NCBI GenBank assembly: GCA_041657425.1
Contig: JBBABY010000005.1
Location: forward strand, 60,001 to 92,000
Length of the DNA stretch: 32,000 nt
Direction: 5' to 3'
Source of the DNA: an archaeon
Lineage (GTDB): Archaea > Iainarchaeota > Iainarchaeia > Iainarchaeales > CSSED10-239
Position numbers and translations under genes: made by a program. Shown here one piece after another: positions 3,760 to 30,491 of the stretch (positions are counted from its first letter, which is position 1; the number at the start of each line of letters is the position of its first letter). The notes beneath the pieces are model-generated. The model saw only the letters and a list, made by a program, of their open reading frames with translations, was not told where the DNA came from and made no database searches.

Positions 3760-5448
3760 ATGACACATTTACTATTATTGAATATTGCAATTATCATAAT
3801 TTGTGCAACAGTAATGACATTTATTTTTACTAAACTTAAACAACCATCTGTTCTCGCATTTATAGTAACTGGTATTTTAATAGGTCCGTTAGTTCTTGGT
3901 TGGGTTAATAATTCTGAAGAAATAATGTTAATTTCTGAAATTGGAATTGCCTTTCTTTTATTTAGTGTAGGAATTGGAACGGATTTAAAAGAATTAAAAA
4001 GTTTAAAATTATCGATTATTCTTTTGCCATTAATAAATATAGTTCTTATGTTTATATTTTTATTTGTATTTAGTAAAGTTATTAATCTCACATTAATTCA
4101 ATCATTATATTTTTCTGTCATATTGTCATTCAGTTCCACAATGTTAGTTGCTAAGATTTATTTAGATAATTTTATGATTGATTCTTTGCATGGGCGGATT
4201 GCGATCGGAATACTTCTTGTTGAAGATCTTATAGCCATTCTTGCAATTCCAATTTTAAAAAATTTCAGCGAATTTACATTTTTGATGTTTTTAATAATTC
4301 TTGCAAAGACTGCGGTATTTGTTCTTTTTGCTCTTTTTTTAAATAAAATTGTGTATCCTTATATTATAAAACAAGCATACAAATCTGAGCAAAGTTTCTT
4401 CTTATTATCAATTGCAAGTTGTTTTATATTTATTATGTTATCTTATCTTCTTGATTTTCCAATGGCCGTTGGTGCATTTTTTGGGGGGGTTGCAATTTCT
4501 ATTTATCCGTATAGTTACGAAATCTCTAATAAAATCTCAAGTATAAGAGATCTTTTAGCAACTATTGTTTTTGTATCTTTAGGTATGCAGTTATCTTTAA
4601 ATATTTCTAACGATATTTTCTTTATAATAGTAATATTTATACTTGCATTTATAATAAAACCAATAATTCATTTCTTTATGATTTTATTTGCAGGATATGG
4701 TACAAAAATTTCTTTAAGAGTATCTGGAGATTTAAACCAGATTTCTGAATTTTCGTTAATAATAGCAATGCAAGGAATCGCTTTGGGGCAAATTACAAGT
4801 TCACAATATGCAATAGTGATTATAATTACTTCTCTATCAATGTTAACAACACCTTATGTAATGCTTAATAGTGAAAAGATATATACTTTCTTTAAACCAA
4901 TAATGGATAGATTTAAGGAAGAATTTTGGCACAGGCAAATAAATTCATTGTCTACCATTTCAAAAGATATTAAAGATCACATAGTAGTAATTGGTTCAGA
5001 TGTAATGACTGAAGGTTTCATAAAAGTAGTTTCAAGAGATGTAGATCAACCAATTATCTTAGTGGATTATAATCCAGAAAAGTTATTAGCTTTTCAAAAC
5101 AAAAGAATAAAATATGTTTGTGGAGACATCAACTATAAAGAAGTAATGAATGCAGTAAATTTAAAAGAAGCAAAACTTGCAATATTGACTGCTCCAAAGT
5201 TTGATACAACAATAAGATTTCTAAAAACTGCAAAAACAATTAACCCTCGGCTTCCAATTTATGTTAGAGCAAAAACTAAAAAAGAAGCATTACAATTATA
5301 TGAGCTTGGTGCAGATTTAGTGATCTTACCACATGTTTTAGAATCAAATTATCTTCTTCAAAAAGTTTATTCTTTTGTTAAAGATGGTCCCGAAAGAAAC
5401 AAGGCTCTAAGATCTGAATATTTAAGTTATTTAAAAAAAGAAAATTAG
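3760..5448 (+). CDS. Cation:proton antiporter (CPA2/Kef-type) with a C-terminal RCK/TrkA-N domain, paralog of 1965..3674
   Basis: Same architecture as its divergent neighbour. The N-terminal helices are alignable (LKQPSVLAFIVTGILIGP vs LKQPLIIGYILTGIVVSP), and a C-terminal Rossmann-like VVIGSDVMTEG segment is present. Confidence 0.8.
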   Translation: MTHLLLLNIAIIIICATVMTFIFTKLKQPSVLAFIVTGILIGPLVLGWVNNSEEIMLISEIGIAFLLFSVGIGTDLKELKSLKLSIILLPLINIVLMFIFLFVFSKVINLTLIQSLYFSVILSFSSTMLVAKIYLDNFMIDSLHGRIAIGILLVEDLIAILAIPILKNFSEFTFLMFLIILAKTAVFVLFALFLNKIVYPYIIKQAYKSEQSFFLLSIASCFIFIMLSYLLDFPMAVGAFFGGVAISIYPYSYEISNKISSIRDLLATIVFVSLGMQLSLNISNDIFFIIVIFILAFIIKPIIHFFMILFAGYGTKISLRVSGDLNQISEFSLIIAMQGIALGQITSSQYAIVIIITSLSMLTTPYVMLNSEKIYTFFKPIMDRFKEEFWHRQINSLSTISKDIKDHIVVIGSDVMTEGFIKVVSRDVDQPIILVDYNPEKLLAFQNKRIKYVCGDINYKEVMNAVNLKEAKLAILTAPKFDTTIRFLKTAKTINPRLPIYVRAKTKKEALQLYELGADLVILPHVLESNYLLQKVYSFVKDGPERNKALRSEYLSYLKKEN

Positions 5449-6503: not shown

Positions 6504-6573
6504 AATAATATTATAAAATAAAGCAATTTTTAAATGTTTTTAAATACTCATTTTTATTAAAAGGAGCAAACAA

Positions 6574-7155
6574 ATGATAATCTTAATATGTGGTTTTTCT
6601 GCATCAGGTAAAAGCTATCTAGTTAATTCTGTGGCAGATAAACTAAACTATAAGCACGTTCATACTTCAGATATTCTTAATCAAATTGCGTGCGGGGTTT
6701 CTGAAAAGAAAGTAAATTGTAATAATACAAAAATGAACACCGGTTGGTACGAGTTTTCAGGACTTGATGAAAAGCGAAAGAAAACAAATAATATAGATAA
6801 GAAATTGGATAAATATCTTCTAAACTTAGTAAAAACAAAAAACAATATTGTTCTTGATTCTTGGACACTACCATATTTAGTAAAAGATAATAAAAAAGTA
6901 ATTAAGATTTGGTTAGATGCAACAGAAAAAATAAGATCACAAAGGCTTGCATTAAGAGACAAGATAACATACACAGAAGCACATAAGCTACTAAAAAGCA
7001 AAGATTCTTTTTCTAAGGAACATTTCCAAGAACTCTATGGTTTTACGTTAGGGAAAGACAAACAAGTTTTTGATTTAGTAATTAATACAAATACTTTAAG
7101 TATAAAACAAGTAGAACAGAAAACTCTTGATTTTTTAAAAAAGAAAATTAAGTAG
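6574..7155 (+). CDS. cmk: P-loop nucleotide kinase, probably archaeal-type cytidylate kinase
   Basis: P-loop GFSASGKS. The C-terminal IWLDATEKIRSQRLALRD...FDLVINTNTLS matches the pattern of archaeal Cmk (IwL.A...vRa.Ria.R ... DLviNT). Confidence 0.55.
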   Translation: MIILICGFSASGKSYLVNSVADKLNYKHVHTSDILNQIACGVSEKKVNCNNTKMNTGWYEFSGLDEKRKKTNNIDKKLDKYLLNLVKTKNNIVLDSWTLPYLVKDNKKVIKIWLDATEKIRSQRLALRDKITYTEAHKLLKSKDSFSKEHFQELYGFTLGKDKQVFDLVINTNTLSIKQVEQKTLDFLKKKIK

Positions 7156-7986
7156 TTATTTTTCTATTTTTTTTCTTAGTCTTTCAATAACAGAATAATC
7201 TACATTATATTTTCCAAGTTCATTTTCTGGAAAAAAAGTGCTTCCGTGAAAATCAGAGCCACCACTTTCAATTAAGCATAATTTTTTTGCAATTTCTTTT
7301 GATTCCACGATAAACGCATCATATTCACTTCCATGTGGTCCAGTAGTTTCAATTCCTGAAAGTCCATAAGAAATAAGTTTAGATGAATAATATTCAAAGT
7401 CATTTCTAAGAGATAACGGGAGATACCAAGGGTGAGGAAGCACAGCAACTCCTCCTGCATTTTTTATTTCAGCAATTACTTTTTTAGCACTATATCTTTT
7501 TGGTTTATAGTCAATACTTATCTTCTTAATAATTCCAACAAATGCTTCTTGTAAGTTTTGAACATAGCCGTTCTTTCTAAGTTCCAAAGCCAGGTGTGTA
7601 GCCATAACTTTTTGTGTTGGTCCTGCAAACTTAAAGATTGATTCCATTTCAACATTGTAGCCATTATCTTGTAACCAATAAATCTTTTGAGTAACGACGT
7701 CACTAATGGATTTTGAGTTTTCTTCTAAAATCTTAAGTAATGGTTCATAATTAGGATCAAAGAAATAACCAAGAATTTCTGTAGACTCACAATTAATTTC
7801 AACACCTGTAATTAATTCGATTTTTTCTTTTTTTGCAAATTTAGAAGCATCAGCCAAAGCATCAACGCCATTATGATCAGTAATTGCTAAAGCTTTAAGT
7901 TTCTTAGAAGAAGCAATTTTTATTAAATATTCAGGAGAATGAAAACCATCTGAATAGTAAGTGTGAGTGTGTAAATCACAGTTCAT
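7156..7986 (-). CDS. PHP-domain metal-dependent phosphoesterase
   Basis: The N-terminal DLHTHTYYSDG and ITDHN motifs and the C-terminal GGSDFHG are classic PHP (COG0613) signatures. Confidence 0.85.
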   Translation of the reverse strand: MNCDLHTHTYYSDGFHSPEYLIKIASSKKLKALAITDHNGVDALADASKFAKKEKIELITGVEINCESTEILGYFFDPNYEPLLKILEENSKSISDVVTQKIYWLQDNGYNVEMESIFKFAGPTQKVMATHLALELRKNGYVQNLQEAFVGIIKKISIDYKPKRYSAKKVIAEIKNAGGVAVLPHPWYLPLSLRNDFEYYSSKLISYGLSGIETTGPHGSEYDAFIVESKEIAKKLCLIESGGSDFHGSTFFPENELGKYNVDYSVIERLRKKIEK

Positions 7987-8002
7987 TTGTTTTCTTCCCG
8001 CT

Positions 8003-8212
8003 TTATTGCATAGTCTTGGTTGCTAGTTTTATATCTTCGCCAGTAACTGTTTTTCTTTTTGCGTGCTTTGCAAGTTCAATTGCTTGTTTTGAGATGTCCA
8101 TAGCTACTTCAGAAAGAATCTTACTTAGTTCTTCTGCTGCGTCTTCTGACACTCTTTCTGCTCCTGCCTTTCTAATAAGTCTATCGATTGCTGCAACTGG
8201 TAAATCAGTCAT
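8003..8212 (-). CDS. Archaeal histone (HMfA/B family)
   Basis: 69 aa. [22 protein letters not shown]...[17 protein letters not shown] is the canonical archaeal histone-fold sequence. Confidence 0.9.
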
Positions 8213-16865: not shown

Positions 16866-16993
16866 TTTGCGGCCAATTTGTAAGGTTATTGTGTGGAAAT
16901 AGTAAACTATTGCGCGCTAACCTCAAAAAAAATACACGGTATTTTTTAGGATCCTAAAAAATCAGTGATTTTTTATGAGAGCGCAACCGGTTT
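16866..16993 (+). other. GC-clamped structured leader element, copy A (upstream of tRNA-Ser UGA)
   Basis: attgcgcgc (16909-16917) comes first. Hairpin 1 is aaaaaatac/gtatttttt (16927-16947). aggatcc follows. Hairpin 2 is taaaaaatca/tgatttttta (16955-16975). gcgcaaccgg (16981-16990) closes the element. It is collinear with copy B. Confidence 0.5.
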
Positions 16994-17038
16994 AGTTAAC
17001 TAGAGAAGAAACGCCTATGAACTGGGCGAACAGTTAAA

Positions 17039-17774: not shown

Positions 17775-17902
17775 TTGTGTGTCGATAAGCAACCAGTTAG
17801 TGCCATACAAATTCTGGCTGGGCGCCAACTCAGGAAAACAAAAGTTTTCAGGATGCCAAGAAATCGCAGCGACGATTTGTTGTGCACGACCGCAACCGGT
17901 TG
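17775..17902 (+). other. GC-clamped structured leader element, copy B (abuts tRNA-Ser GGA)
   Basis: ctggctgggcgcc (17814-17826) comes first. Hairpin 1 is gaaaac/gttttc (17834-17849). aggatgcc follows. Hairpin 2 is aaatcg/cgattt (17861-17878). gaccgcaaccggttg (17888-17902) closes the element. The order matches copy A, with different but still complementary stem sequences. Confidence 0.5.
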
Positions 17903-18202: not shown

Positions 18203-18880
18203 ATGGTTGTAAGAAAATTAACAAAAGGCAGTTTCCCAAATGCAAAAAATATTAAGAGCATTAAAATAGGAGGTCGTAAATTCGTTGCAGAAAAGAAACA
18301 GACAGCAGACATAAAACTAGAAATAAATAAAGAAAAAATTAAAATAATCAGTTCTTTAAAAAAACGTCTAGAGAGAGGAGAATTAAAATTAACCAGTGCC
18401 GATTTAATGAAATTAAAGGCACAGGGAATTAGCCTGATTGAATTAAGAAAAGTAATAGCTCCAGAATATTTGTTAAAAACTTTGAGTTTAAAAGCATTTG
18501 TAAAAATATATGGTCAAGAAGATGTAGTTAAGGCTTTTAATGGTATTTCCCGATTAATATTTGATGCTGGTTTGAGGGAGACAGTTTATGCTATTGATCC
18601 AAAATATTTTAAAAATGAATTTTCATTAAAAGAAATTGTGAATAAGCTTTTTAAATACGGCTACAAGGATGTGTCACAGTATAGGGCCCCAGATATGCAA
18701 AGCTATATGTCACAAAATGGACGTTATGAAGTAGCAAAGGCTTGGGGGCTTAAGAATATAATAGAAACATTTGGGATTAAAGAGACTATGGTGGCTATGG
18801 GTAGATCAGAATCTGAACTTAGATCTTTATTAAATGCATCAGATTACGATTTAGGGAAAGCTTTTCCTCGCGAATATTAG
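18203..18880 (+). CDS. Hypothetical protein (225 aa)
   Basis: Long ORF with a lysine-rich N-terminus and no motif I recognise. Its TAG stop is the first three nt of att-like repeat R1. Confidence 0.6.
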   Translation: MVVRKLTKGSFPNAKNIKSIKIGGRKFVAEKKQTADIKLEINKEKIKIISSLKKRLERGELKLTSADLMKLKAQGISLIELRKVIAPEYLLKTLSLKAFVKIYGQEDVVKAFNGISRLIFDAGLRETVYAIDPKYFKNEFSLKEIVNKLFKYGYKDVSQYRAPDMQSYMSQNGRYEVAKAWGLKNIIETFGIKETMVAMGRSESELRSLLNASDYDLGKAFPREY

Positions 18881-18920
18881 AGTCTCACGACTACGCGAGT
18901 TCGAATCTCGTCCTCTGCGA
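18878..18920 (+). repeat. att-like repeat R1: copy of the 3' 43 nt of tRNA-Ser(GGA)
   Basis: tagagtcTCACgactacgcgagttcgaatctcgtcctctgcga is 40/43 identical to 17945-17987. The only differences are in the variable-arm loop (gaaa vs tcac). Confidence 0.9.
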
Positions 18921-18944
18921 TTTTTTATTTTGTGTTTAAATTGC

Positions 18945-22125: not shown

Positions 22126-22203
22126 GTAACTTTCTTTTTTATTTTTTTAGTAAGCGGCTAGTGAAAGAATGTGACTTGCAAAAAAGTATCGGTACTAGAA
22201 TGC

Positions 22204-22246
22204 GAGAGTCTCACGACTACTCGATTTCGAATCTAGTCTTATGCAA
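22204..22246 (+). repeat. att-like repeat R2: degenerate copy of the tRNA-Ser 3' segment
   Basis: gagagtctcacgactactcgatttcgaatctagtcttatgcaa is about 36/43 identical to R1 and shares the R-specific tctcacgactac signature. Confidence 0.7.
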
Positions 22247-22371
22247 TTCAATTCTAAGTAAGCATTTTGCGGCAAGTTGATTTGTATCGCGTGCATTGAC
22301 TAAATTGTTTTAGATATATTTTTAAATTAGTTCTTATTAGTATATTTAGATTTTTATAAAGGAGGAATAAT

Positions 22372-22836
22372 ATGTTAAAAGAATTATCTATGAGCGAATA
22401 TATTACAAAGTACACATCTATTTTACATTTAGGTGCTGGAATTTTATATATACTATACGGAATTGGATTATTAGTCCTTAAAAATTTCGCATCAAATCTT
22501 ACTTCAATGTCAGGATTATTTGGCAGTGCATTTTTAAAAAATATGACTATTGGTCTTGCAATAATATTATTTATTGCAGGAATTTACACTTTATTAACAG
22601 CATATGGCCTTTGGGGGTATAAAAATTTTGGAAGAATAATGTTGTTAATAGAAATGTATGCTTTGGCTGCATTAATTGCAATAATGTTAATTATTTCAAT
22701 ATTTTCAATAATTACATTTTGGCAAGTTGGATTAATCTATTTCCTTGCAATGATGTATTTGGGATTGATTATCTTTTTAAGCATATATCTATTCCAAGCA
22801 CATCCAGAAATGGTTGCCCTTTTCAATAAAATGTAA
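22372..22836 (+). CDS. Polytopic membrane protein (hypothetical)
   Basis: AGGAGG RBS and four or five hydrophobic helices. No family recognised. Confidence 0.65.
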   Translation: MLKELSMSEYITKYTSILHLGAGILYILYGIGLLVLKNFASNLTSMSGLFGSAFLKNMTIGLAIILFIAGIYTLLTAYGLWGYKNFGRIMLLIEMYALAALIAIMLIISIFSIITFWQVGLIYFLAMMYLGLIIFLSIYLFQAHPEMVALFNKM

Positions 22837-22906: not shown

Positions 22907-23557
22907 ATGAATAATGAGCCAGTAACTAATACAAATAAAGAATATCCTAAAAAAAAAGGGATATCTGTCAAATTTTTAATATCTCTTGGTATAATTTTAA
23001 TAATTATAATTTTGGCAGTTATTTTGGTTTCCAAAGCAATATATAATAGAGATATTAGTACAAATATAAATAATTTTGATGAATGTATTGAGGCAGGAAA
23101 TCCCGTAGTTGCGGGGACTTATCCTATACAATGTAAAACACTAGACGGAAAACTATTTATTTCTACTTCAGATAATATTGAGAATAAACCTAAGCATGTT
23201 GATGATTTAATATTTGTAGAAAGACAAGCAACTAATTTTGAGGAATGTTTAAACTGGGGTTTCGTTTCCCAAGGTTATCCTGAATATTGTACAGATGGGA
23301 ATTCTACATTTATTAATCCTAAACATACAAGTGCTCCAACACTAGCAGAACAACAGATTTGTAATACTGATAGCGAATGTACAGGACTGCCAAATCCTTG
23401 TCATAGAACAAGGGTATGTATTAATAAAAAGTGGGTGTCTTTTTACAAAATTAAGCCAGCAGCGTGTACTTTAGAAATAGATCTTTTAGCAGTGTCTCCT
23501 GGAGATTGTGTTTGTCTAAATACAGTCTGTACAAATAAGAAGTTAATTCAAAGTTAG
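22907..23557 (+). CDS. Cysteine-rich membrane-anchored or secreted protein (hypothetical)
   Basis: It has an N-terminal TM (ISVKFLISLGIILIIIILAVILV) and an ectodomain with about 14 Cys in repeated C-x-x-x-C-like spacing. Its TAG stop is the first three nt of repeat R3. Confidence 0.65.
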   Translation: MNNEPVTNTNKEYPKKKGISVKFLISLGIILIIIILAVILVSKAIYNRDISTNINNFDECIEAGNPVVAGTYPIQCKTLDGKLFISTSDNIENKPKHVDDLIFVERQATNFEECLNWGFVSQGYPEYCTDGNSTFINPKHTSAPTLAEQQICNTDSECTGLPNPCHRTRVCINKKWVSFYKIKPAACTLEIDLLAVSPGDCVCLNTVCTNKKLIQS

Positions 23558-23597
23558 AGTCTCATGACTACGCAAGTTCGAATCTCGCCATCTGCGA
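23555..23597 (+). repeat. att-like repeat R3: copy of the tRNA-Ser 3' segment
   Basis: tagagtctcatgactacgcaagttcgaatctcgccatctgcga is 39/43 identical to R1. Confidence 0.85.
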
Positions 23598-23631
23598 ATT
23601 ATTATTTAATAAACTATTTTGTGAAAAAAAC

Positions 23632-23958
23632 ATGACTAGAAAAAAAGACGCAGGAGAATTGTTACATTATTTTTATAAATCGTCTATAGTTGATCACTCC
23701 ATTTCTGCAGAAGATTTACTAAAAGAAATAAGATGGGGAAGTTGGAGATTAGAAAAAGCAATTAAATATCTAAGAGATGTTGATGCGATTGAAATTACTC
23801 TATTTAAAGAAAAGATTGAAAGATTACAAAAGTTTGTAATAGTGGGCCTAACAAAAACAGGTATCCAAATAATAGAAGATAAATCCAAATTTAAAACCAC
23901 TTTCGGATTTGAAATAAACTTAGAGAGCACAAAGTGGAGTTGGAATACTAAACGATAA
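23632..23958 (+). CDS. Small winged-helix-like DNA-binding protein (hypothetical)
   Basis: 108 aa. LEKAIKYLRDVDAIEI...VIVGLTKTGIQIIED resembles a wHTH recognition helix and wing. Confidence 0.45.
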   Translation: MTRKKDAGELLHYFYKSSIVDHSISAEDLLKEIRWGSWRLEKAIKYLRDVDAIEITLFKEKIERLQKFVIVGLTKTGIQIIEDKSKFKTTFGFEINLESTKWSWNTKR

Positions 23959-23962
23959 ATAT

Positions 23963-23980
23963 TGCGCGCGAGCTGAACGC
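23963..23980 (+). repeat. Left arm of an 18-bp GC-rich inverted repeat (partner at 28851-28868)
   Basis: tgcgcgcgagctgaacgc vs the reverse complement of 28851-28868, tgggcgcgagctgaccgc, gives 16/18 identical. It also shares attgcgcgc with leader copy A. Confidence 0.8.
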
Positions 23981-24072
23981 TGTCGTTTTTGGGATGAAGC
24001 ACTTTTTCTAAAAGGGCTCCACTGGACAGCTACCCCCGAAAACTTTAAACACTATTTCTTTCATAGTTATTT

Positions 24073-24657
24073 ATGAATTACTTATATGTAGATATCGAAA
24101 CTGTTCCTGTGGATAAGGAAAAACATTTATCTCTAGATGAAGAGGAAAGAAAGAAACTCTTAAATCCAATTGATTCAAAAATTATTGCAATCGGTCTAAA
24201 GTCAACTAAAGATAATAAGCTAGTCATTCTTCAATCTGATAATGAAAAGGAAATGTTAACTGAATTTTGGAAGATTTACGACAATTTTAGAGCAAATAGT
24301 TCTTTAACAAACAAGATTGTGGGCTTTAACATTAAGCAGTTTGATATTTCTTTTTTAGTGACTAGAAGCTTTGTTAATGGAGTTACAGTTGTTCCTTTCG
24401 TCTTAAAAGAGATAATCGACATTAGAGACCTATTAACTTGCTTTAAAAGAGGGCCAACAAGAGGCACTTTAAAGGAATTTGGAGAGATTATTGGCGTGGT
24501 CTTAGTAGAAGACATGGACGGCTCAAAAGTGGCTGAAACTTACTGGTCAGGAAATATTGATTTAATCAAGACTTACTTAGCAAAAGACATAGAATTAACT
24601 GAAAAGATTCACAACAAGGTAATGGAACTAGGACTAGACAAAATAAGAGAATGGTGA
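24073..24657 (+). CDS. DEDDy 3'-5' exonuclease related to the PolB exonuclease domain (RNase H-like fold)
   Basis: ExoI is YVDIET (D7, E9). ExoII is GFNIKQFDISFL (D91). ExoIII is YLAKD (Y168, D172). This is the COG3298/DNA_pol_B_exo2-like pattern. Confidence 0.75.
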   Translation: MNYLYVDIETVPVDKEKHLSLDEEERKKLLNPIDSKIIAIGLKSTKDNKLVILQSDNEKEMLTEFWKIYDNFRANSSLTNKIVGFNIKQFDISFLVTRSFVNGVTVVPFVLKEIIDIRDLLTCFKRGPTRGTLKEFGEIIGVVLVEDMDGSKVAETYWSGNIDLIKTYLAKDIELTEKIHNKVMELGLDKIREW

Positions 24658-24728
24658 AATATCTATTTAAATATTTAATGTTCATATATATTACTACAAG
24701 ACTATAATATTTGGAGAAATGATAAAAC

Positions 24729-24959
24729 ATGGAAAGACAACCAGTAGATGACAATAACCATAAAATGATTGGAAATATAGTTTCAATTGGATATGATCCA
24801 GAATTAGAAGTTCTAGAAGTAGAATATCAATTAGGCTATTTATACCAATATCTTAAGGTTCCTAAAGAAACTTACGACAAATTAATGAACGAAAGAAACA
24901 AAATTACATTCGTTCAAGAAAGAATCGCAAAAGTTTATAAAAATCAAAGAATCAAATAA
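24729..24959 (+). CDS. KTSC-domain protein
   Basis: VSIGYDPELEVLEVEYQLGYLYQYLKVPKETYDKLMN fits the KTSC pattern (I..igYd.....L.V.F..g..Y.Y..VP...y..l). Confidence 0.65.
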   Translation: MERQPVDDNNHKMIGNIVSIGYDPELEVLEVEYQLGYLYQYLKVPKETYDKLMNERNKITFVQERIAKVYKNQRIK

Positions 24960-25017
24960 GATTCTTTATTTTTAATTTTTAAATAAGTTTAAATAATCTC
25001 TTTTTCTATAGTTATTT

Positions 25018-25746
25018 ATGATAAGTAAAAATTCTGAACAAAGTTATAGAGAAATTATTTTACTTATACACCCATTATTCAATTTATTTCTAGATAAAAT
25101 TAGTAGAATAAATTTCAATAATAAGGAAGAGCTATTAAAATATTTAGTTGGAAGAGAACCATTATTGATTAATTTAAAAGAAACAGTTAAAGATTATGCA
25201 AAAATTATTCTAAAATATAAAAATAAAAAAGGCGCATTATTTGTTTTAATTAATCCGGCAGCAAATAGTTCTCTTTCTTTTAATGTAGATGGCAAGAAAG
25301 TAAATTGGAAAAATTTGCCAGAATGTCAAGCACTATTTTCTATAGTAAATATCATAAGTGCTTTTGGAAGAAAAGAGTTAGGTGAAAGATTTGTAATAAC
25401 TAATTTTAGTCCGGAAGACGGTTACACAAAATTATTTTCTGAGAAAATCTATAATAAATTAGATAAATATCTAGAAATAAGAGCTTTTGGAGAATACACT
25501 GATGGTTGTGTTTATGATATTTCAAATAGAGTTGTTGAAGAATTACAAAACAGAGAATTTAGAATAATGGACTTAGAGACTTTAAGAGATCATTGTATAT
25601 CACTAAACGAGATAGAAACGAAACTAGATAAGCTATTAGAAGAAAAAAGGAAAGTATCAAAAATTAAAGAAAATCAACAAAAGAAAGAACAAATTCAAAA
25701 AGTAGTTTCTATGTTAAATAATTATAAGAAATCCAAAGCAAAATAA
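25018..25746 (+). CDS. Hypothetical protein (242 aa) immediately upstream of the HerA-like ATPase
   Basis: Long ORF with a K/E-rich coiled-coil tail. There is only a faint Rossmann/isochorismatase-like resemblance (LEIRAFGEYTDGCVYDIS), too weak for a call. Confidence 0.55.
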   Translation: MISKNSEQSYREIILLIHPLFNLFLDKISRINFNNKEELLKYLVGREPLLINLKETVKDYAKIILKYKNKKGALFVLINPAANSSLSFNVDGKKVNWKNLPECQALFSIVNIISAFGRKELGERFVITNFSPEDGYTKLFSEKIYNKLDKYLEIRAFGEYTDGCVYDISNRVVEELQNREFRIMDLETLRDHCISLNEIETKLDKLLEEKRKVSKIKENQQKKEQIQKVVSMLNNYKKSKAK

Positions 25747-25831
25747 ATTATAGTTTTTAGCATACAAATCTTTAAAAACCCTAAGATATTATATTAATTT
25801 AGATATACTTAAATTATTACATTGAATATTT

Positions 25832-28408
25832 ATGGCTATAGAAAAATATAAAGCAGATAAAGAAGAGAAAGATTTCTTTGAAAAAATAGAAGATGAACCA
25901 GCAGAAGAAGAGTTAATTGATACCGTTAAAGAAAAAAAAGAAAAGATAAAAGAAATATCTCCAAAGCTTGAATTTTTAACAGATCCAAAGGATCCAGAAA
26001 TGGTCTATATTGGAAGAAAAAAAAGCGTTCTAAAGGATCATGGTTCTAAGTCTTGTGCATTCTTAGGAAAGGTTTATGAGGATGATTGTAGAGATAAAAA
26101 GGTACATCTTGATGGATTAAACCCTCATGTTGTGTTTATAGATGGTTCAAGAGGATCAGGTAAGAGTTATGGCCTTGGGGTAATTGCTGAAGAGTTATCT
26201 GCAAATAATCCATATATTGGACAGATTGTTGTTGATCCAGTAGGTGTCTTTTGGTCCATGAAATATCCAAATCAAGAAAAGAAAGAACTAGAGGAATTAA
26301 TTGCTTGGGGATTATCTCCAAAAGGTTGTAATAATTTAAAAGTTTTTGTTCCAGAAGGAGTAGTAAGTAAAGTTTCAAAAGAAACATATGATGAAACTTT
26401 TTCAATGTATCCATCTTTACTTTTAGCAGAGGATTGGTGTCTAACTTTTGGAATTGATAGATTTAATCCAACAGGTTTACTTCTTGAAAAAACACTATCT
26501 TTCGTAAAAACGGGTTATAAAGCAGGAGATCCAAGTAAAGATGATGTTCCTGAGCAGGACATTCCTTCTAAAGGAAATCTTTACACATTAGAAGACATAA
26601 TTTTTTGTTTACAAAACGCAATGGAGTTTAAGTCTTCTTCAACAGGTTATAAGCAAGATTCAATAAGAGCATTAGTTTCAAGATTTGAAGCAGCAAAGGC
26701 TTGGGGAATATTTAGTGATCACGGTACACCACTTTCAAAGCTTTCAAAGGAAAGACAATTGACAATTCTTGATACTAGTTTTTTAGATGACAATATCACA
26801 GCACTAGTTATTGGAATATTAGCAAGAAGAATACTTTCTGCAAGAAAGTTAGTAACAAGACAAGATGCAATTAAAAAGTTTGATGATAATTCAGAAAGTC
26901 CTGATGATCTTCTAGAGATATCAATTCCTCCAACTTGGGTGTATATTGATGAAGCTCACACATTAATACCTTCTGGTAACACAATCACTCCAGCAACAAA
27001 CGCAATAATTGAATATGTTAAGCAAGGAAGAAGACCAGGTTGTTCAATGGTTCTTGCCACTCAGCAACCTTCTGCAATCAACTCCAAGGTTCTTTCTCAA
27101 GTTGATATTTTCATAAGCCATAAGCTTGTTTTCAATGACGATATCCACGCAGTTCAGAAAAGAATGCCTGCAATTATTCCTGAGGCTTACAAGGATCCTA
27201 ATTTCATAAAGACACTTCCAGTAGGTGTTGCATTAACTGGAGATAGAGGAGAAGAAACAAAAAGAGCATTTATCTTAAAAATAAAACCAAGACTAAGTCA
27301 ACATGAAGGAAGAGATGCAGAAACAATTAGAGAGGTTCCAACATTAGGAAAAAAAGAAATAATTAATTTTTGTTCAGACATGGTATATAAGAAATTAGTT
27401 GCTTCAAAAACTTTAAAGACAACTGATGCAAAAGATTTGCTTGACGTAATTAATTCAAAGTACAATAGCGAAATAACATTTAATGAAGTATTAATCTCAT
27501 TAAGTAAGATGGGTGTTGTTGAAAAAGAAAACATCTTAGTGTTTGCAAACAAAAGTCAAAAACAAAAAACAGAAATATCAAAAGAAGAAATAGAAAATAT
27601 TAATCAAGCCATTGAGTATTCAAATGCAGTTGACCAAAACCCAGAACTTAGAGAACCTGCTCCAGAAATAGAGCCAGACTACAAGCCAGTTCTTCCTCAA
27701 AGGATTTCAAGAGAAATAGCAATTAATATTGCAAGTAGAACTAATAAGAAGAAGTTCTTTTTTATTAAAGAAGAAGAATCAATTACTCAAATACATATAG
27801 TTTACAGAAAACTATACAAAGTAATTTACAATATCTTTGATGAAGAAGAAAATTATATCACTCATAATTGTTTCATAGATTCAATAACAGGAGAATTCAT
27901 ACATTTTGATGGAGTTGATTTTAAGGAGTCAACTGGTTTTAATCTTGTTGATGATTTAACTGTTGATGATATTATATTACTAGATAAAATCTTTGCTTGG
28001 AGGACTCCAGAAGAGTTGTCTGAAGAATTAGAAGCAACTCCCGAACAAATAAAAGAAGATTTAATTTCTCTAGTTGACAGAGAATTAGCAGATGTTGATT
28101 TAATAAATAAACAAGAAGCTTTCAGAATTAAAAGAAAAATAGATGTGCCATTTTCCCCAAAGCTTTCAATTCTTTCTTCAGTAACTGATCTGCCATTAAA
28201 GAAGCAATTAATCCCAATTGTAGAAGATGAGGAAGAAATATCAAAAGAAGAAATTGATGAGAGATTAAATAAGTTATGGCAAAACATAGAAGTAGTAGAC
28301 ATTGAAGAAGTCTTTTGGCCAATCTGGGAAATTAATTCAAGAGACAAAAGAGCAAATGATAGATTTGTTCTAGTTGATGCAGTACTTGGTCAAATAGTTG
28401 ATGCTTAA
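25832..28408 (+). CDS. HerA/FtsK-superfamily (DUF87-like) P-loop ATPase with a ~400-aa C-terminal extension
   Basis: Walker A is VVFIDGSRGSGKS (aa 105-112). Walker B is WVYIDEAH (D372, E373). KQGRRPGCSMVLATQQPSAINSKVLSQVDIFISHKL is the HerA/FtsK-type sensor and arginine region. The acidic C-terminal half is unrecognised. Confidence 0.75.
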   Translation: MAIEKYKADKEEKDFFEKIEDEPAEEELIDTVKEKKEKIKEISPKLEFLTDPKDPEMVYIGRKKSVLKDHGSKSCAFLGKVYEDDCRDKKVHLDGLNPHVVFIDGSRGSGKSYGLGVIAEELSANNPYIGQIVVDPVGVFWSMKYPNQEKKELEELIAWGLSPKGCNNLKVFVPEGVVSKVSKETYDETFSMYPSLLLAEDWCLTFGIDRFNPTGLLLEKTLSFVKTGYKAGDPSKDDVPEQDIPSKGNLYTLEDIIFCLQNAMEFKSSSTGYKQDSIRALVSRFEAAKAWGIFSDHGTPLSKLSKERQLTILDTSFLDDNITALVIGILARRILSARKLVTRQDAIKKFDDNSESPDDLLEISIPPTWVYIDEAHTLIPSGNTITPATNAIIEYVKQGRRPGCSMVLATQQPSAINSKVLSQVDIFISHKLVFNDDIHAVQKRMPAIIPEAYKDPNFIKTLPVGVALTGDRGEETKRAFILKIKPRLSQHEGRDAETIREVPTLGKKEIINFCSDMVYKKLVASKTLKTTDAKDLLDVINSKYNSEITFNEVLISLSKMGVVEKENILVFANKSQKQKTEISKEEIENINQAIEYSNAVDQNPELREPAPEIEPDYKPVLPQRISREIAINIASRTNKKKFFFIKEEESITQIHIVYRKLYKVIYNIFDEEENYITHNCFIDSITGEFIHFDGVDFKESTGFNLVDDLTVDDIILLDKIFAWRTPEELSEELEATPEQIKEDLISLVDRELADVDLINKQEAFRIKRKIDVPFSPKLSILSSVTDLPLKKQLIPIVEDEEEISKEEIDERLNKLWQNIEVVDIEEVFWPIWEINSRDKRANDRFVLVDAVLGQIVDA

Positions 28409-28423
28409 AAGAAGGAAAAACTT

Positions 28424-28759
28424 ATGTTAGATTTACTTAAAAAAAAAGAAGATACAAAGCTTAGTGTTGATTCATTTATTTTAGACTCATGTAAAGCAAC
28501 ACCTGGTTTTGAGTTTTTCCCTAAGAAATCCACAAAGATTGATTTAGAGAAATTATTAATGACTTTAAGGACAAAGAACTACTATATAGAAAAAGATAAT
28601 TCTCCATTTCTAATAATTATAAAAACAAAAAAAGGAACAGTTACTATTTTTAGTTCATTAAAAATAATAATTAGAGAAACAACACAAGAAAAAGTTGCAA
28701 AAGCAATACTTACTGATCTCTTAAAAGTAATAAACGATTTTTTGTATAAGCAAGGGTGA
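28424..28759 (+). CDS. Small protein with a single TBP-repeat-like domain (hypothetical)
   Basis: KIDLEKLLMTLRTKNYYIE...KGTVTIFSSLKIIIRETTQEKVAKA parallels one TATA-binding-protein repeat (lDLekla..l....YePe.FPGl..r...pk...liF.SGKiv.TGaks.e.a..A). The last 10 nt overlap tRNA-Ser(CGA). Confidence 0.45.
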   Translation: MLDLLKKKEDTKLSVDSFILDSCKATPGFEFFPKKSTKIDLEKLLMTLRTKNYYIEKDNSPFLIIIKTKKGTVTIFSSLKIIIRETTQEKVAKAILTDLLKVINDFLYKQG

Positions 28760-28839
28760 CTGAGTTCGGTTGAAGGTGCTAGTCTCGAAAACTAGATGCG
28801 GTTTATACCCGCACATGGGTTCAAATCCCATTCCTTGCG
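28750..28839 (+). tRNA. tRNA-Ser (anticodon CGA), class II
   Basis: Acceptor stem is GCAAGGG/TCCTTGC with one G-U pair. The anticodon stem CTAGT/ACTAG carries loop CTCGAAA. The long variable arm is GCGG-tttatac-CCGC. The T-arm is ATGGG-TTCAAAT-CCCAT and the discriminator is G. Confidence 0.85.
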
Positions 28840-28843
28840 TAGA

Positions 28844-28912
28844 GCCGGTTGCGGTCAGCTCGCGCCCAGCCTGGTTTGAATATCATGCACTACTCGGTTT
28901 CGCTTGCGCACA
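28844..28912 (-). other. Short-form copy C of the GC-rich leader element, inverted, abutting the 3' end of tRNA-Ser(CGA)
   Basis: The reverse complement reads aagcgaaaccgagtagtgcatgatattcaaaccaggctgggcgcgagctgaccgcaaccggc. This is alignable to 17787-17826 plus 17888-17900 of copy B but lacks the two hairpins. It contains the right IR arm (28851-28868). Confidence 0.6.
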
Positions 28913-29020: not shown

Positions 29021-30301
29021 ATGAATAAAAAAATATTAATTGGAATTTTTATAGTATTAATAATAGGTGTTGCAACAGCAGGAGCTGTTGCGTTTTTAAG
29101 ACCTTATAATCCATTAACTCCACCATCAGTTGATGATACTGGATTAACAACAGAAGGAATACAAGAAGTAGCAAATGCCAATAATAAGTTTGCAATTGAT
29201 GTCTATAAACAAATAACTGCAACGAATAATGACAATGTTTTCGTTTCTCCATATAGTATATCTTCAGCATTAGCAATGACTTATGAAGGGGCAAATGGTC
29301 AAACTGCAGATGAAATGAAAGCAGTTTTTAATTTTCCTGAGACCGATTTAATGAGGCCTAACTTTGCAGCAGTTTATAATATAATTAATAAAGAAGATAA
29401 GCAATATGAACTAAGGACTGGAAATGCTTTATGGATTCAGAAAGATTATACGATTTTATCTAATTATCTTTCAACAGTTGAAAAATATTATGGTGGTAAA
29501 GCAGTAAATTTAGATTTCATAAATGAAACTGAAAAATCTAGATTAACAATTAATAGTTTTATTGAAGAACAAACAAATAATAAAATAAAAAATTTGATTC
29601 CAGTAGGTTTAATTTCAGGAGATACAAGACTTGTTTTAACAAATGCAATATATTTCAAAGGTAAGTGGGATGTAGAATTTAATAAGGATAATACAATAAA
29701 AAGAGAATTTAGAACGCCAACAGAATCAAAAGAAGTTTTGACAATGTTTATGGCTCCAAAACCAGAAGAATTATTTAATTATTTTGAAGATGAAGAACTT
29801 CAAGCAATAGAGTTGCCTTACAAAGATAAAGAATTATCAATGGTAATAATACTTCCAAAAGAAGATAATGTTTTAACAACACTAGAGCAATCTCTTACCT
29901 CTGAGAAATTAAATGAATGGACAAGTAATTTAAAAGAATCAAGAGTTGATGAAATTTATTTTCCAAAATTTGAATTTGATTCAGGTGCAGAATTAAGTGA
30001 GATATTAAAAGATATGGGAATGCCCACAGTATTTTCGGCTTCAGCTGATTTTTCTAAAATGACTGGAAATAGGGAATTATCAATTGGTGCAGTAATCCAT
30101 AAAGCATTCATAAAAGTAGATGAAGAAGGTTCAGAAGCTGCAGCAGCAACTGCAGTAGTAATGAGGGACACTGCTGTGGGGCCAGGAGATACGCCACCTA
30201 AAACAATATTTAAAGCAGATCATCCATTTCTTTTTTTGATTAAAGAAAACAGCACAGGAACGATCTTGTTTATGGGAAGAATCAATGATCCTTCCTCTTA
30301 G
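29021..30301 (+). CDS. Serpin (serine protease inhibitor) with an N-terminal membrane anchor or signal
   Basis: VSPYSISSALAMTYEGANGQTADEM, NAIYFKGKW, the hinge/RCL EEGSEAAAATAVVM and the C-terminal FKADHPFLFLIKE are canonical serpin motifs. There is an N-terminal hydrophobic helix and an AGGAG RBS. Confidence 0.9.
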   Translation: MNKKILIGIFIVLIIGVATAGAVAFLRPYNPLTPPSVDDTGLTTEGIQEVANANNKFAIDVYKQITATNNDNVFVSPYSISSALAMTYEGANGQTADEMKAVFNFPETDLMRPNFAAVYNIINKEDKQYELRTGNALWIQKDYTILSNYLSTVEKYYGGKAVNLDFINETEKSRLTINSFIEEQTNNKIKNLIPVGLISGDTRLVLTNAIYFKGKWDVEFNKDNTIKREFRTPTESKEVLTMFMAPKPEELFNYFEDEELQAIELPYKDKELSMVIILPKEDNVLTTLEQSLTSEKLNEWTSNLKESRVDEIYFPKFEFDSGAELSEILKDMGMPTVFSASADFSKMTGNRELSIGAVIHKAFIKVDEEGSEAAAATAVVMRDTAVGPGDTPPKTIFKADHPFLFLIKENSTGTILFMGRINDPSS

Positions 30302-30404: not shown

Positions 30405-30491
30405 TATGTCAGCTGCTAGTTCGTTCGTCAGGTAACCAATCCTGGGGGACAACCTAGGGTGGCAATATCCTTTGTGATATCCTCTGACATA
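30405..30491. ncRNA. GC-rich (~47% by hand count) structured island between convergent genes; candidate small RNA of unknown class
   Basis: An 8-bp terminal inverted repeat, tatgtcag (30405-30412) / ctgacata (30484-30491), encloses a G/C-rich core (cctgggggacaacctagggtggc). Composition stands out from the flanks. Confidence 0.25.

Follow-up and report, generated by a model that had tools for sequence, protein, structure and literature searches.

Archaeal HerA is encoded in an operon with NurA and usually with Mre11 and Rad50, anti-phage HerA proteins (SIR2-HerA/Nezha, DUF4297-HerA and TdpAB) are patchily distributed and come with an effector, and FtsK and SpoIIIE combine a ring translocase of the FtsK-HerA superfamily with C-terminal winged-helix DNA-binding domains. 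Here we analyzed an 858-amino-acid (aa) ATPase of the DUF87/HerA superfamily and its surroundings in a window of 32,000 nucleotides (nt) from an Iainarchaeota archaeon (GenBank assembly GCA_041657425.1, contig JBBABY010000005.1, positions 60,001–92,000 of the forward strand; all coordinates below refer to this window). The ATPase gene lies in an interval, 23963–28868, that is bracketed by a GC-rich inverted repeat and that a sequence-only reading had taken for a discrete module. Comparison with relatives instead showed that the interval is a vertically inherited chromosome stretch from a relative of Candidatus Forterrea within the Iainarchaeota (DPANN). As a whole, the locus is best explained as such an inherited stretch around a housekeeping HerA-type translocase with a cofactor of the TATA-box binding protein (TBP) fold, an account we consider likely; we hold its structural and evolutionary part with high confidence, and its functional part, which draws on structure models, is evenly poised.

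The ATPase is predicted to have the HerA fold. Foldseek comparison of its AlphaFold2 model (predicted local distance difference test (pLDDT) 72) with the PDB retrieved the HerA-NurA complex of T. kodakarensis (9x1m, expectation value (E) = 3.2e-15), HerA of S. solfataricus (4d2i, 1.6e-13) and that of D. radiodurans (7wrw, 1.4e-12), with alignments spanning 450–503 columns. In the model, an acidic, disordered N-terminal tail precedes an N-terminal beta-strand region and core (approximately residues 46–500), followed by two C-terminal modules, each a winged helix plus an alpha/beta domain. A HAS barrel would fit the N-terminal strands and the alignment with HerA over nearly the full length. Walker A (GSRGSGKS, residue 105), DEAH (residue 373) and ATQQPS (residue 409) all fall in invariant columns, and 23 homologues with 44–78% identity have more than 150 such columns within residues 46–498. 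We take the GRRxG...ATQQPS stretch to be the equivalent of HerA's GRK...SQRPS. The Pfam DUF87 match reached 38.6 bits against a cut-off of 23.2. Sequence likeness to the solved HerA proteins is limited to the Walker B–sensor region. In the AlphaFold2 model, the C-terminal 358 aa (isoelectric point 4.6) form two winged-helix modules, and a beta-alpha-beta3 domain follows each of them. A family profile matches, in this region, winged helix-turn-helix (wHTH) domains of the MarR/BlaI type, and homologues have TrmB matches. For the beta-rich domains, faint precomputed matches tentatively suggest a resemblance to PepSY.

Scanning a genome collection with two conserved ATPase peptides, a count of carriers without a denominator, revealed the gene in 281 species-level genomes, nearly all of them with Iainarchaeum, Diapherotrites, Forterrea or 'archaeon' as their title. 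Complete chromosomes with the gene are CP045477 (Forterrea multitransposorum), CP010424 (AR10) and CP064981, and hundreds of full-length homologues with 44–83% identity occur in DPANN metagenome-assembled genomes. The homologue contigs reach 1 Mb, with neighbours including a tRNA synthetase, glmS/PGM/glmU-like genes and SMC. Throughout the main Iainarchaeum clade the ATPase gene stands alone, and a glmU-like/PGM/glmS-like gene set converges on it in 27 loci. An exhaustive search placed the core in a broader family of archaeal proteins, with 236 clusters at E < 1e-30, which extends to Hadarchaeales, Theionarchaea, Nanoarchaeia and Aenigmarchaeota, some members having TrmB/TFIIE-like or DUF835+SAP tails. 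Five homologues (P0076, P0168, P0173, P0174 and P0311), spanning several lineages including Nanoarchaeia, carry an intein at Walker A, composed of a splicing domain and a LAGLIDADG endonuclease. Intein insertion is typical of highly conserved catalytic sites. The ATPase had no phage match; IMG/VR yielded one 38-residue P-loop match, and the best plasmid match was 30% identical over the core only. Because of this wide distribution, the conservation, the P-loop inteins, the lack of phage matches, the distance of the plasmid matches and the glm-like contexts, the comparisons indicate that the ATPase gene is probably a vertically inherited chromosomal gene and not a defence or mobile gene.

Two observations concern its homologues elsewhere. 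An SMC gene lies 6–7 kb downstream of the ATPase gene in two distant Iainarchaeota loci (L004, 18040–19150; L011, 14286–14580). Plasmid NZ_CP098519 of Haloplanus sp. HW8-1 (L095) encodes, at 6947–8116, a 389-aa homologue that is 30% identical to the ATPase core; its gene overlaps one for a 380-aa hypothetical protein and is located between genes for a BREX-type ATPase and a PD-(D/E)XK nuclease/helicase (AddAB-like). Pfam revealed no NurA-like match in the gene adjoining this homologue.

The six features between the repeat arms all lie on the plus strand, and both this arrangement and the inverted repeat, with 16 of 18 positions complementary, were recovered as the sequence-only reading had described them. 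Its gene identifications were likewise upheld by Pfam matches, ARAGORN and Rfam, and readable motifs. The features of the interval, together with its immediate left neighbour and the related GC-rich elements A–D, are as follows.

16920–17000, plus strand: GC-rich element D, a member of the repeat family, 39 nt upstream of tRNA-Ser(TGA)
17786–17902, plus strand: GC-rich element C, a full-length family member adjoining the 5' end of tRNA-Ser(GGA)
23632–23958, plus strand: putative wHTH small protein, 108 aa, outside the left arm, its position kept in close relatives
23953–24047, plus strand: GC-rich element A, which holds the left arm; a repeat-family copy away from any tRNA-Ser gene (orphan)
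24073–24657, plus strand: stand-alone DEDDy 3'-5' exonuclease (PolB-exo-like), 194 aa; PF10108 (DNA_pol_B_exo2), E = 7e-13
24729–24959, plus strand: KTSC-domain protein, 76 aa; PF13619, E = 7.5e-16
25018–25746, plus strand: ORFan, 242 aa, no family match
25832–28408, plus strand: DUF87/HerA-superfamily ATPase, 858 aa; Pfam DUF87, E = 1.6e-9
28424–28759, plus strand: single TBP-repeat protein, 111 aa; Pfam TBP PF00352, 25.8 bits against a cut-off of 22.9
28750–28839, plus strand: tRNA-Ser(CGA); ARAGORN and Rfam, 50.1 bits
28840–28912, minus strand: GC-rich element B, an inverted and internally deleted copy that holds the right arm and adjoins the 3' end of tRNA-Ser(CGA)

We inspected relatives whose ATPases are 68–83% identical to that of the window (loci L001–L003, L005–L008, L013, L016 and L030). 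Their gene order is MscL-(wHTH)-KTSC-exonuclease-ATPase-TBP-like-tRNA-Ser(cga)-serpin-...-YdjM-BacA-thioredoxin, and upstream of it the succession of tRNA-Gly(ccc), tRNA-Ser(tga) and tRNA-Ser(gga) genes matches that of the window. For the wHTH, KTSC and exonuclease proteins, the relatives encode orthologues with 67%, 70% and 49% identity, respectively; the 67% holds for the L001 protein encoded at 6545–6865 and the 70% for the L001 KTSC orthologue. The wHTH gene also lies upstream in L001, L005 and L016. The shared gene order runs through both arms and beyond the interval. L001 and the closest relative, L013/L005, lack the GC-rich islands that hold the arms at the matching sites. Since relatives keep the same genes and outer flanks without the repeat pair, the interval is most probably neither a discrete element nor a mobile or defence module, and a module bounded by the inverted repeat does not appear to be a real entity. 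That view had required the repeat to sit at the module boundary in relatives; it is absent there, and the claim fails.

Among the neighbours, the TBP-like gene is the one that recurs with the ATPase gene. Partner counts came from iterative profile searches of the fetched loci, 83 of which had enough sequence. In 30 of the 83, the ATPase gene is directly followed, on the same strand and within 120 nt, by the TBP-like gene; these comprise almost all loci with an ATPase at least 47% identical to that of the window, plus L004 and L083. Unbiased clustering of neighbours revealed no other recurrent same-strand partner. The KTSC and wHTH genes are confined to the close clade, KTSC being also linked in L018 and 5 kb off in L008. 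The exonuclease gene, which the sequence-only reading had suggested as the nuclease partner of the ATPase, adjoins it only in the closest clade, so that this pairing is not general; in three other loci it lies 1.3–2.7 kb upstream. Pfam detected no NurA, Mre11 or Rad50 among the window genes or in nine annotated neighbourhoods. An uncharacterised HerA-family DNA-processing machine stays plausible, but what is conserved of it comprises the ATPase and the TBP-fold protein and not the six genes.

The AlphaFold2 model of the 111-aa TBP-like protein has a pLDDT of 90, and its top Foldseek matches are TBP half-domains (probability approximately 1, root mean square deviation 2.6–3.1 Å), with weaker matches of the same fold to BamC and RNase HIII. 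The protein holds a single repeat and scores far below the cut-offs of the NCBIfam TBP models. Its homologues occur only in the same group of archaea, and JGI names some of them 'ribonuclease HIII', 'TATA-box binding protein' or 'ArsR family metal-binding transcriptional regulator'. Literature searches retrieved no account of a pairing of this ATPase with a TBP-fold protein and nothing pertinent on DUF835-HerA fusions. The TBP-like open reading frame (ORF) and tRNA-Ser(CGA) share 10 nt (28750–28759), which end the ORF, stop codon included, and begin the tRNA, an overlap that recurs in L001, L005, L006, L008, L018 and L030. RNase P cutting a co-transcript of the two would take off the stop codon of the TBP-like ORF.

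The fold of this partner, together with C-terminal ATPase domains that resemble the winged helices of TrmB, TFIIE-alpha and MarR and the fact that no nuclease partner is kept outside one clade, could also speak for a pair that acts on protein-DNA complexes or transcription, for example by remodelling DNA-bound factors, and not in repair or segregation. We consider this unlikely: the core has the fold of a HerA-type ring translocase, as modelled, with all catalytic motifs, and single TBP-like domains are also general nucleic-acid-binding modules, as in RNase HIII (3vn5).

One of the two interpretations given by the sequence-only reading was a new HerA-based anti-virus defence system in which the exonuclease, the KTSC protein, the 242-aa protein as effector, the ATPase and the TBP-like protein act on invading DNA. 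The PADLOC profiles HerA and mad8 do match the ATPase (E = 1e-17 and 3e-16), its closest solved relatives by sequence are the anti-phage HerA subunits 8xau and 9c1m, and the distant Haloplanus homologue of its core lies in a defence-like plasmid island. However, the PADLOC HerA matches span only the Walker B–sensor region, and our scans recovered no SIR2, DUF4297 or other PADLOC partner. That canonical HerA partners are not recognisable here had already been noted, and the Pfam and PADLOC scans bear this out, with no NurA, SIR2 or DUF4297. The proposed effector directly upstream of the ATPase gene is an ORFan found in no relative, and a phylum-wide, strongly conserved ATPase gene that is syntenic with housekeeping genes behaves in the opposite way to defence genes. 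Together with the P-loop inteins, this distribution contradicts the defence interpretation, which is very improbable.

The inverted repeat itself is statistically real. Its left arm (23963–23980) is TTGCGCGCGAGCTGAACG and its right arm (28851–28868) is TGCGGTCAGCTCGCGCCC. The 14-nt arm core, GCGCGAGCTGAMCG, occurs at just two sites in the window, with 0 expected from 100 shuffles. The arms form the only inverted pair of 18-mers within 8 kb that has a GC content of at least 11/18 and at most two mismatches; 30 shuffles keeping local composition produced no GC-rich pair with at most two mismatches. Inverted AT-rich pairs of equal quality number 140 and arise by chance, so the GC-rich arm pair alone stands out. 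The arm core was found in none of the 92 fetched loci (0/92), and no relative has both arms. The arms bracket the six genes in coordinates only and do not mark an evolutionary boundary.

Where the arms come from is suggested by the GC-rich elements themselves. Both arms correspond to one short module, GCGCGAGCTGA. It belongs to a GC-rich repeat family found beside tRNA-Ser genes, whose members are directly oriented when 5' of tRNA-Ser(GGA/TGA) and inverted when 3' of tRNA-Ser(CGA). In alignments, B reads as C reverse-complemented and shortened by an internal deletion of about 57 nt, A is directly oriented and matches C in its middle and right part, and C and D are related (blastn E = 0.004, and the family alignment). 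Relatives carry family copies upstream of tRNA-Ser(gga) (L005/L013 and L006) and of tRNA-Ser(tga) (L006), and inverted copies directly after tRNA-Ser(cga) (L006/L007, L008, L009/L010/L025 from Forterrea, and L024). With nhmmer, every copy in the data set except A was located within 1–39 nt of a tRNA-Ser gene, A being the sole copy away from one. Element A is absent at the matching site in L001 and L013, and its nearest relative is the inverted element after tRNA-Ser(CGA) in L006, an A-type copy that includes the window's left arm in reverse complement, GGCTCGCGCGCAA; A also resembles sequence that precedes tRNA-Ser(gga) in L001. In L008, the copy includes AGCTCGTGCCCAGCCTGGTTTGA, which is the window's right arm and its continuation. 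Right-arm-like elements occur without a left arm in L006, L008 and L010, and a B-type element is missing in L001 and L005/L013. From these comparisons, the right arm belongs to an ancestral element in its ancestral position and orientation, and the left arm is the homologous module of an extra orphan copy, A. One direct and one inverted copy of a single repeat necessarily look like an inverted repeat.

The GC-rich elements flanking tRNA-Ser genes could be a new class of conserved non-coding element. Element C folds far better than shuffled sequences (z = -3.7 and -3.3 on the two strands) and, as no TATA-like sequence lies within 30 nt of tRNA-Ser(GGA), may be a long structured pre-tRNA leader. 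In the islands and the tRNA-Ser region, Rfam matched only tRNAs, at gathering as well as permissive thresholds, and RNAalifold on a naive alignment of six family members gave no usable consensus structure, probably owing to large indels and mosaic modules. Likeness of the TCCACTGGA motif in A to an origin recognition box was considered and dropped, as B, C and D lack the motif. A split or permuted tRNA behind the complementarity of leader and trailer was also rejected, all three tRNA-Ser genes being complete.

This complementarity raises the question of whether the arms are functional in themselves. The 3' trailer of tRNA-Ser(CGA) might pair in trans with transcripts of the A/C/D type, a leader–trailer pairing like that of archaeal tRNAs that are split or co-processed; alternatively, a recombinase might use the arms as inversion sites. 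The 5' flanks of the other two tRNA-Ser genes are formed by the family of which B is the reverse complement, so that the transcripts would be complementary; in addition, the inverted orientation after tRNA-Ser(CGA) is kept in at least five relatives, and C is strongly structured, as described above. Yet the three tRNA-Ser genes score 50–59 bits as complete genes and require no trans-splicing, A and B fold no better than shuffles as single sequences, no consensus structure was recovered and no recombinase gene lies nearby. As relatives lack A, an A-B interaction would moreover be lineage-specific. A functional role of the arms is therefore quite improbable.

Within the inherited order, one local rearrangement stands out. 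The exonuclease gene lies directly upstream of the ATPase gene in relatives and upstream of the KTSC gene in the window, where the 242-aa ORF fills the ancestral exonuclease slot. A 21-nt leader that includes the start codon is duplicated, with 86% identity, at 24056–24076 (exonuclease) and 25001–25021 (242-aa ORF), and both copies resemble the KTSC-to-exonuclease spacer of L001. This duplicated leader appears to mark the rearrangement that displaced the exonuclease gene, and element A sits exactly at the left edge of the rearranged stretch. The 242-aa protein matched only itself among 5.8 billion proteins, had no homologue in 92 loci and no family match in profile scans, and is best regarded as a lineage-specific ORFan, not as the conserved effector that had been proposed. 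The exonuclease of the window is about 50% identical to its close-clade orthologues, which are 74–95% identical to each other, and its indel pattern recurs in the copies of two distant Iainarchaeota loci, L044 and L076; the alignments suggest either fast divergence after relocation or replacement. Its PF10108 match reached 49.2 bits against a cut-off of 24, and all three Exo motifs are readable in the translation, namely DIET (ExoI), NIKQFD (ExoII, NxxxFD) and YLAKD (ExoIII, YxxxD), with the catalytic tyrosine present. The 108-aa protein encoded at 23632–23958 matched no Pfam family, and NCBIfam gave a weak SarA-like match (E = 0.006).

Just upstream, the 3' part of a tRNA-Ser gene (variable arm, T arm and acceptor 3' strand) occurs as three direct-repeat copies at 18872–18932, 22198–22259 and 23550–23610, and a further fragment is located at 5206–5260 in L006. 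They were detected by nhmmer with E = 1e-16 to 1e-18 over all loci, or 5e-20 to 6e-18 in the window alone. Two of the three window fragments and the L006 copy end a small ORF and contain its stop codon. L001 and L005 lack the segment from the second to the third fragment (ORFs 22372–22836 and 22907–23557), and in them the wHTH gene follows MscL directly. These fragments look like serial integration scars, or gene cassettes, at a putative tRNA-Ser attachment site; no integrase was found. An integration hotspot next to the interval, as had been suggested, is thereby borne out.

By the second interpretation, a small virus or plasmid with terminal inverted repeats would have integrated at a tRNA-Ser site, and the interval would be its replication or packaging core. 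This view can draw on the tRNA-Ser fragments as a sign that integrations occur in the region. It is further favoured by the statistical reality of the inverted repeat and by weak terminase-like PHROG matches of the ATPase (E = 4e-10, residues 366–447 only). Against this, relatives keep the genes and flanks without the pair of arms, and in some the right-arm element stands without a left arm. Pfam, PHROGs and NCBIfam scans for mobility or replication genes (integrase, transposase, Rep, capsid) revealed none. There was no phage match and one trivial viral-contig match, and the G+C content is about 28% throughout the window, with no compositional shift across 23963–28868. An empty site, with the wHTH gene joined to the serpin gene, was seen in none of the relatives examined, and the flanks are of a housekeeping kind. 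An integrated element is thus extremely improbable.

Beyond the right arm, the serpin gene (29021–30301) is full length, with a signal-anchor-like N-terminus and a Pfam match at E = 6.5e-119, and its place downstream of tRNA-Ser(CGA) is kept in several close relatives. Between it and an opposite-strand 168-aa ORF lies a GC-rich (49%) intergenic island, 30406–30489, with a terminal 9-bp stem; the island folds with z = -2.2 on the plus strand and had no Rfam match.

We return to the account of the locus as an inherited stretch around a housekeeping translocase with a TBP-fold cofactor. By homology and modelling, the 858-aa protein would form a HerA-type hexamer that translocates double-strand DNA at the expense of ATP; its two C-terminal winged-helix modules may hold it on, or target it to, DNA, and the co-transcribed TBP-fold protein would be a DNA-binding cofactor or adaptor. 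The role would be one of housekeeping chromosome maintenance, either end processing and recombinational repair or segregation and resolution. In the narrow clade, the neighbouring DEDDy exonuclease may supply nuclease activity, the part that NurA plays for canonical HerA. More specifically, it is a possible but doubtful proposition that the ATPase and its TBP-fold partner form an uncharacterised DNA translocation machine for segregation or resolution, end resection or DNA uptake, which would take on in these reduced archaea the tasks that FtsK or HerA-NurA have elsewhere.

Several points weigh against this account. The TBP-like gene is not adjacent to the ATPase gene in about 50 of the 83 loci and the exonuclease adjoins it in the closest clade only, so that, from gene order, a fixed multi-protein machine does not appear to be established. 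The modelled likeness to HerA is one of fold, at about 15% identity, and because the NCBIfam HerA equivalogs score far below their cut-offs (helicase_HerA, 24.8 bits against 970; HerA_antiphage_2, 36.5 against 850), the behaviour of the ATPase may differ from that of HerA. Distant branches of the core family, to judge from their neighbours, occur in defence-like or plasmid contexts, and an RNA-level or recombinational role of arm pairing is possible.

If the account is true, a genome-reduced, host-dependent phylum keeps, as a chromosomal gene that is widely conserved, an unstudied ring ATPase with DNA-targeting domains of its own and an unusual TBP-fold cofactor. It would offer a handle on chromosome maintenance and partition in DPANN archaea, a little-known matter. 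The locus also holds a warning: in a very AT-rich genome, a lone GC-rich inverted repeat may consist of opposite copies of a conserved tRNA-flanking element, and such repeats should not be taken for mobile-element boundaries unless relatives are compared.

Compared with described systems, the ATPase shares with archaeal HerA (4d2i, 9x1m) the modelled fold, the Walker A and B motifs and a DUF87 match above cut-off, but the curated HerA models score about 25–40 times below their cut-offs, and the window protein adds about 360 C-terminal residues, comprising the two winged-helix plus alpha/beta modules, and an acidic N-terminal tail. Where archaeal HerA has NurA in its operon, the recurrent partner here is the TBP-fold protein. 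Anti-phage HerA subunits give the best sequence matches in the PDB (8xau, E = 2.5e-8; 9c1m, 2.9e-6), and PADLOC HerA profiles match the Walker B–sensor region; unlike those patchy, effector-bearing systems, the window ATPase is phylum-wide and syntenic, without an effector gene. The 111-aa protein belongs with the TBP superfamily (TBP and the RNase HIII N-domain) by its Pfam match and its superposition on TBP half-domains, whereas a bona fide TBP has two repeats; this protein has one, lacks a TFB-type context and is encoded beside the ATPase gene. The exonuclease is an ordinary PF10108 member with intact motifs, of note only for its clade-limited place beside the ATPase gene. With FtsK and SpoIIIE, the ATPase shares the overall plan of a motor followed by C-terminal winged helices, but it has no FtsK_SpoIIIE Pfam match (E ≤ 0.1) and no apparent membrane anchor, and its winged helices are MarR/TrmB-like. 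Neither an orthologue of HerA, nor a member of the anti-phage HerA systems, nor an FtsK, the ATPase would be most like HerA in its working and resembles FtsK in its architecture.

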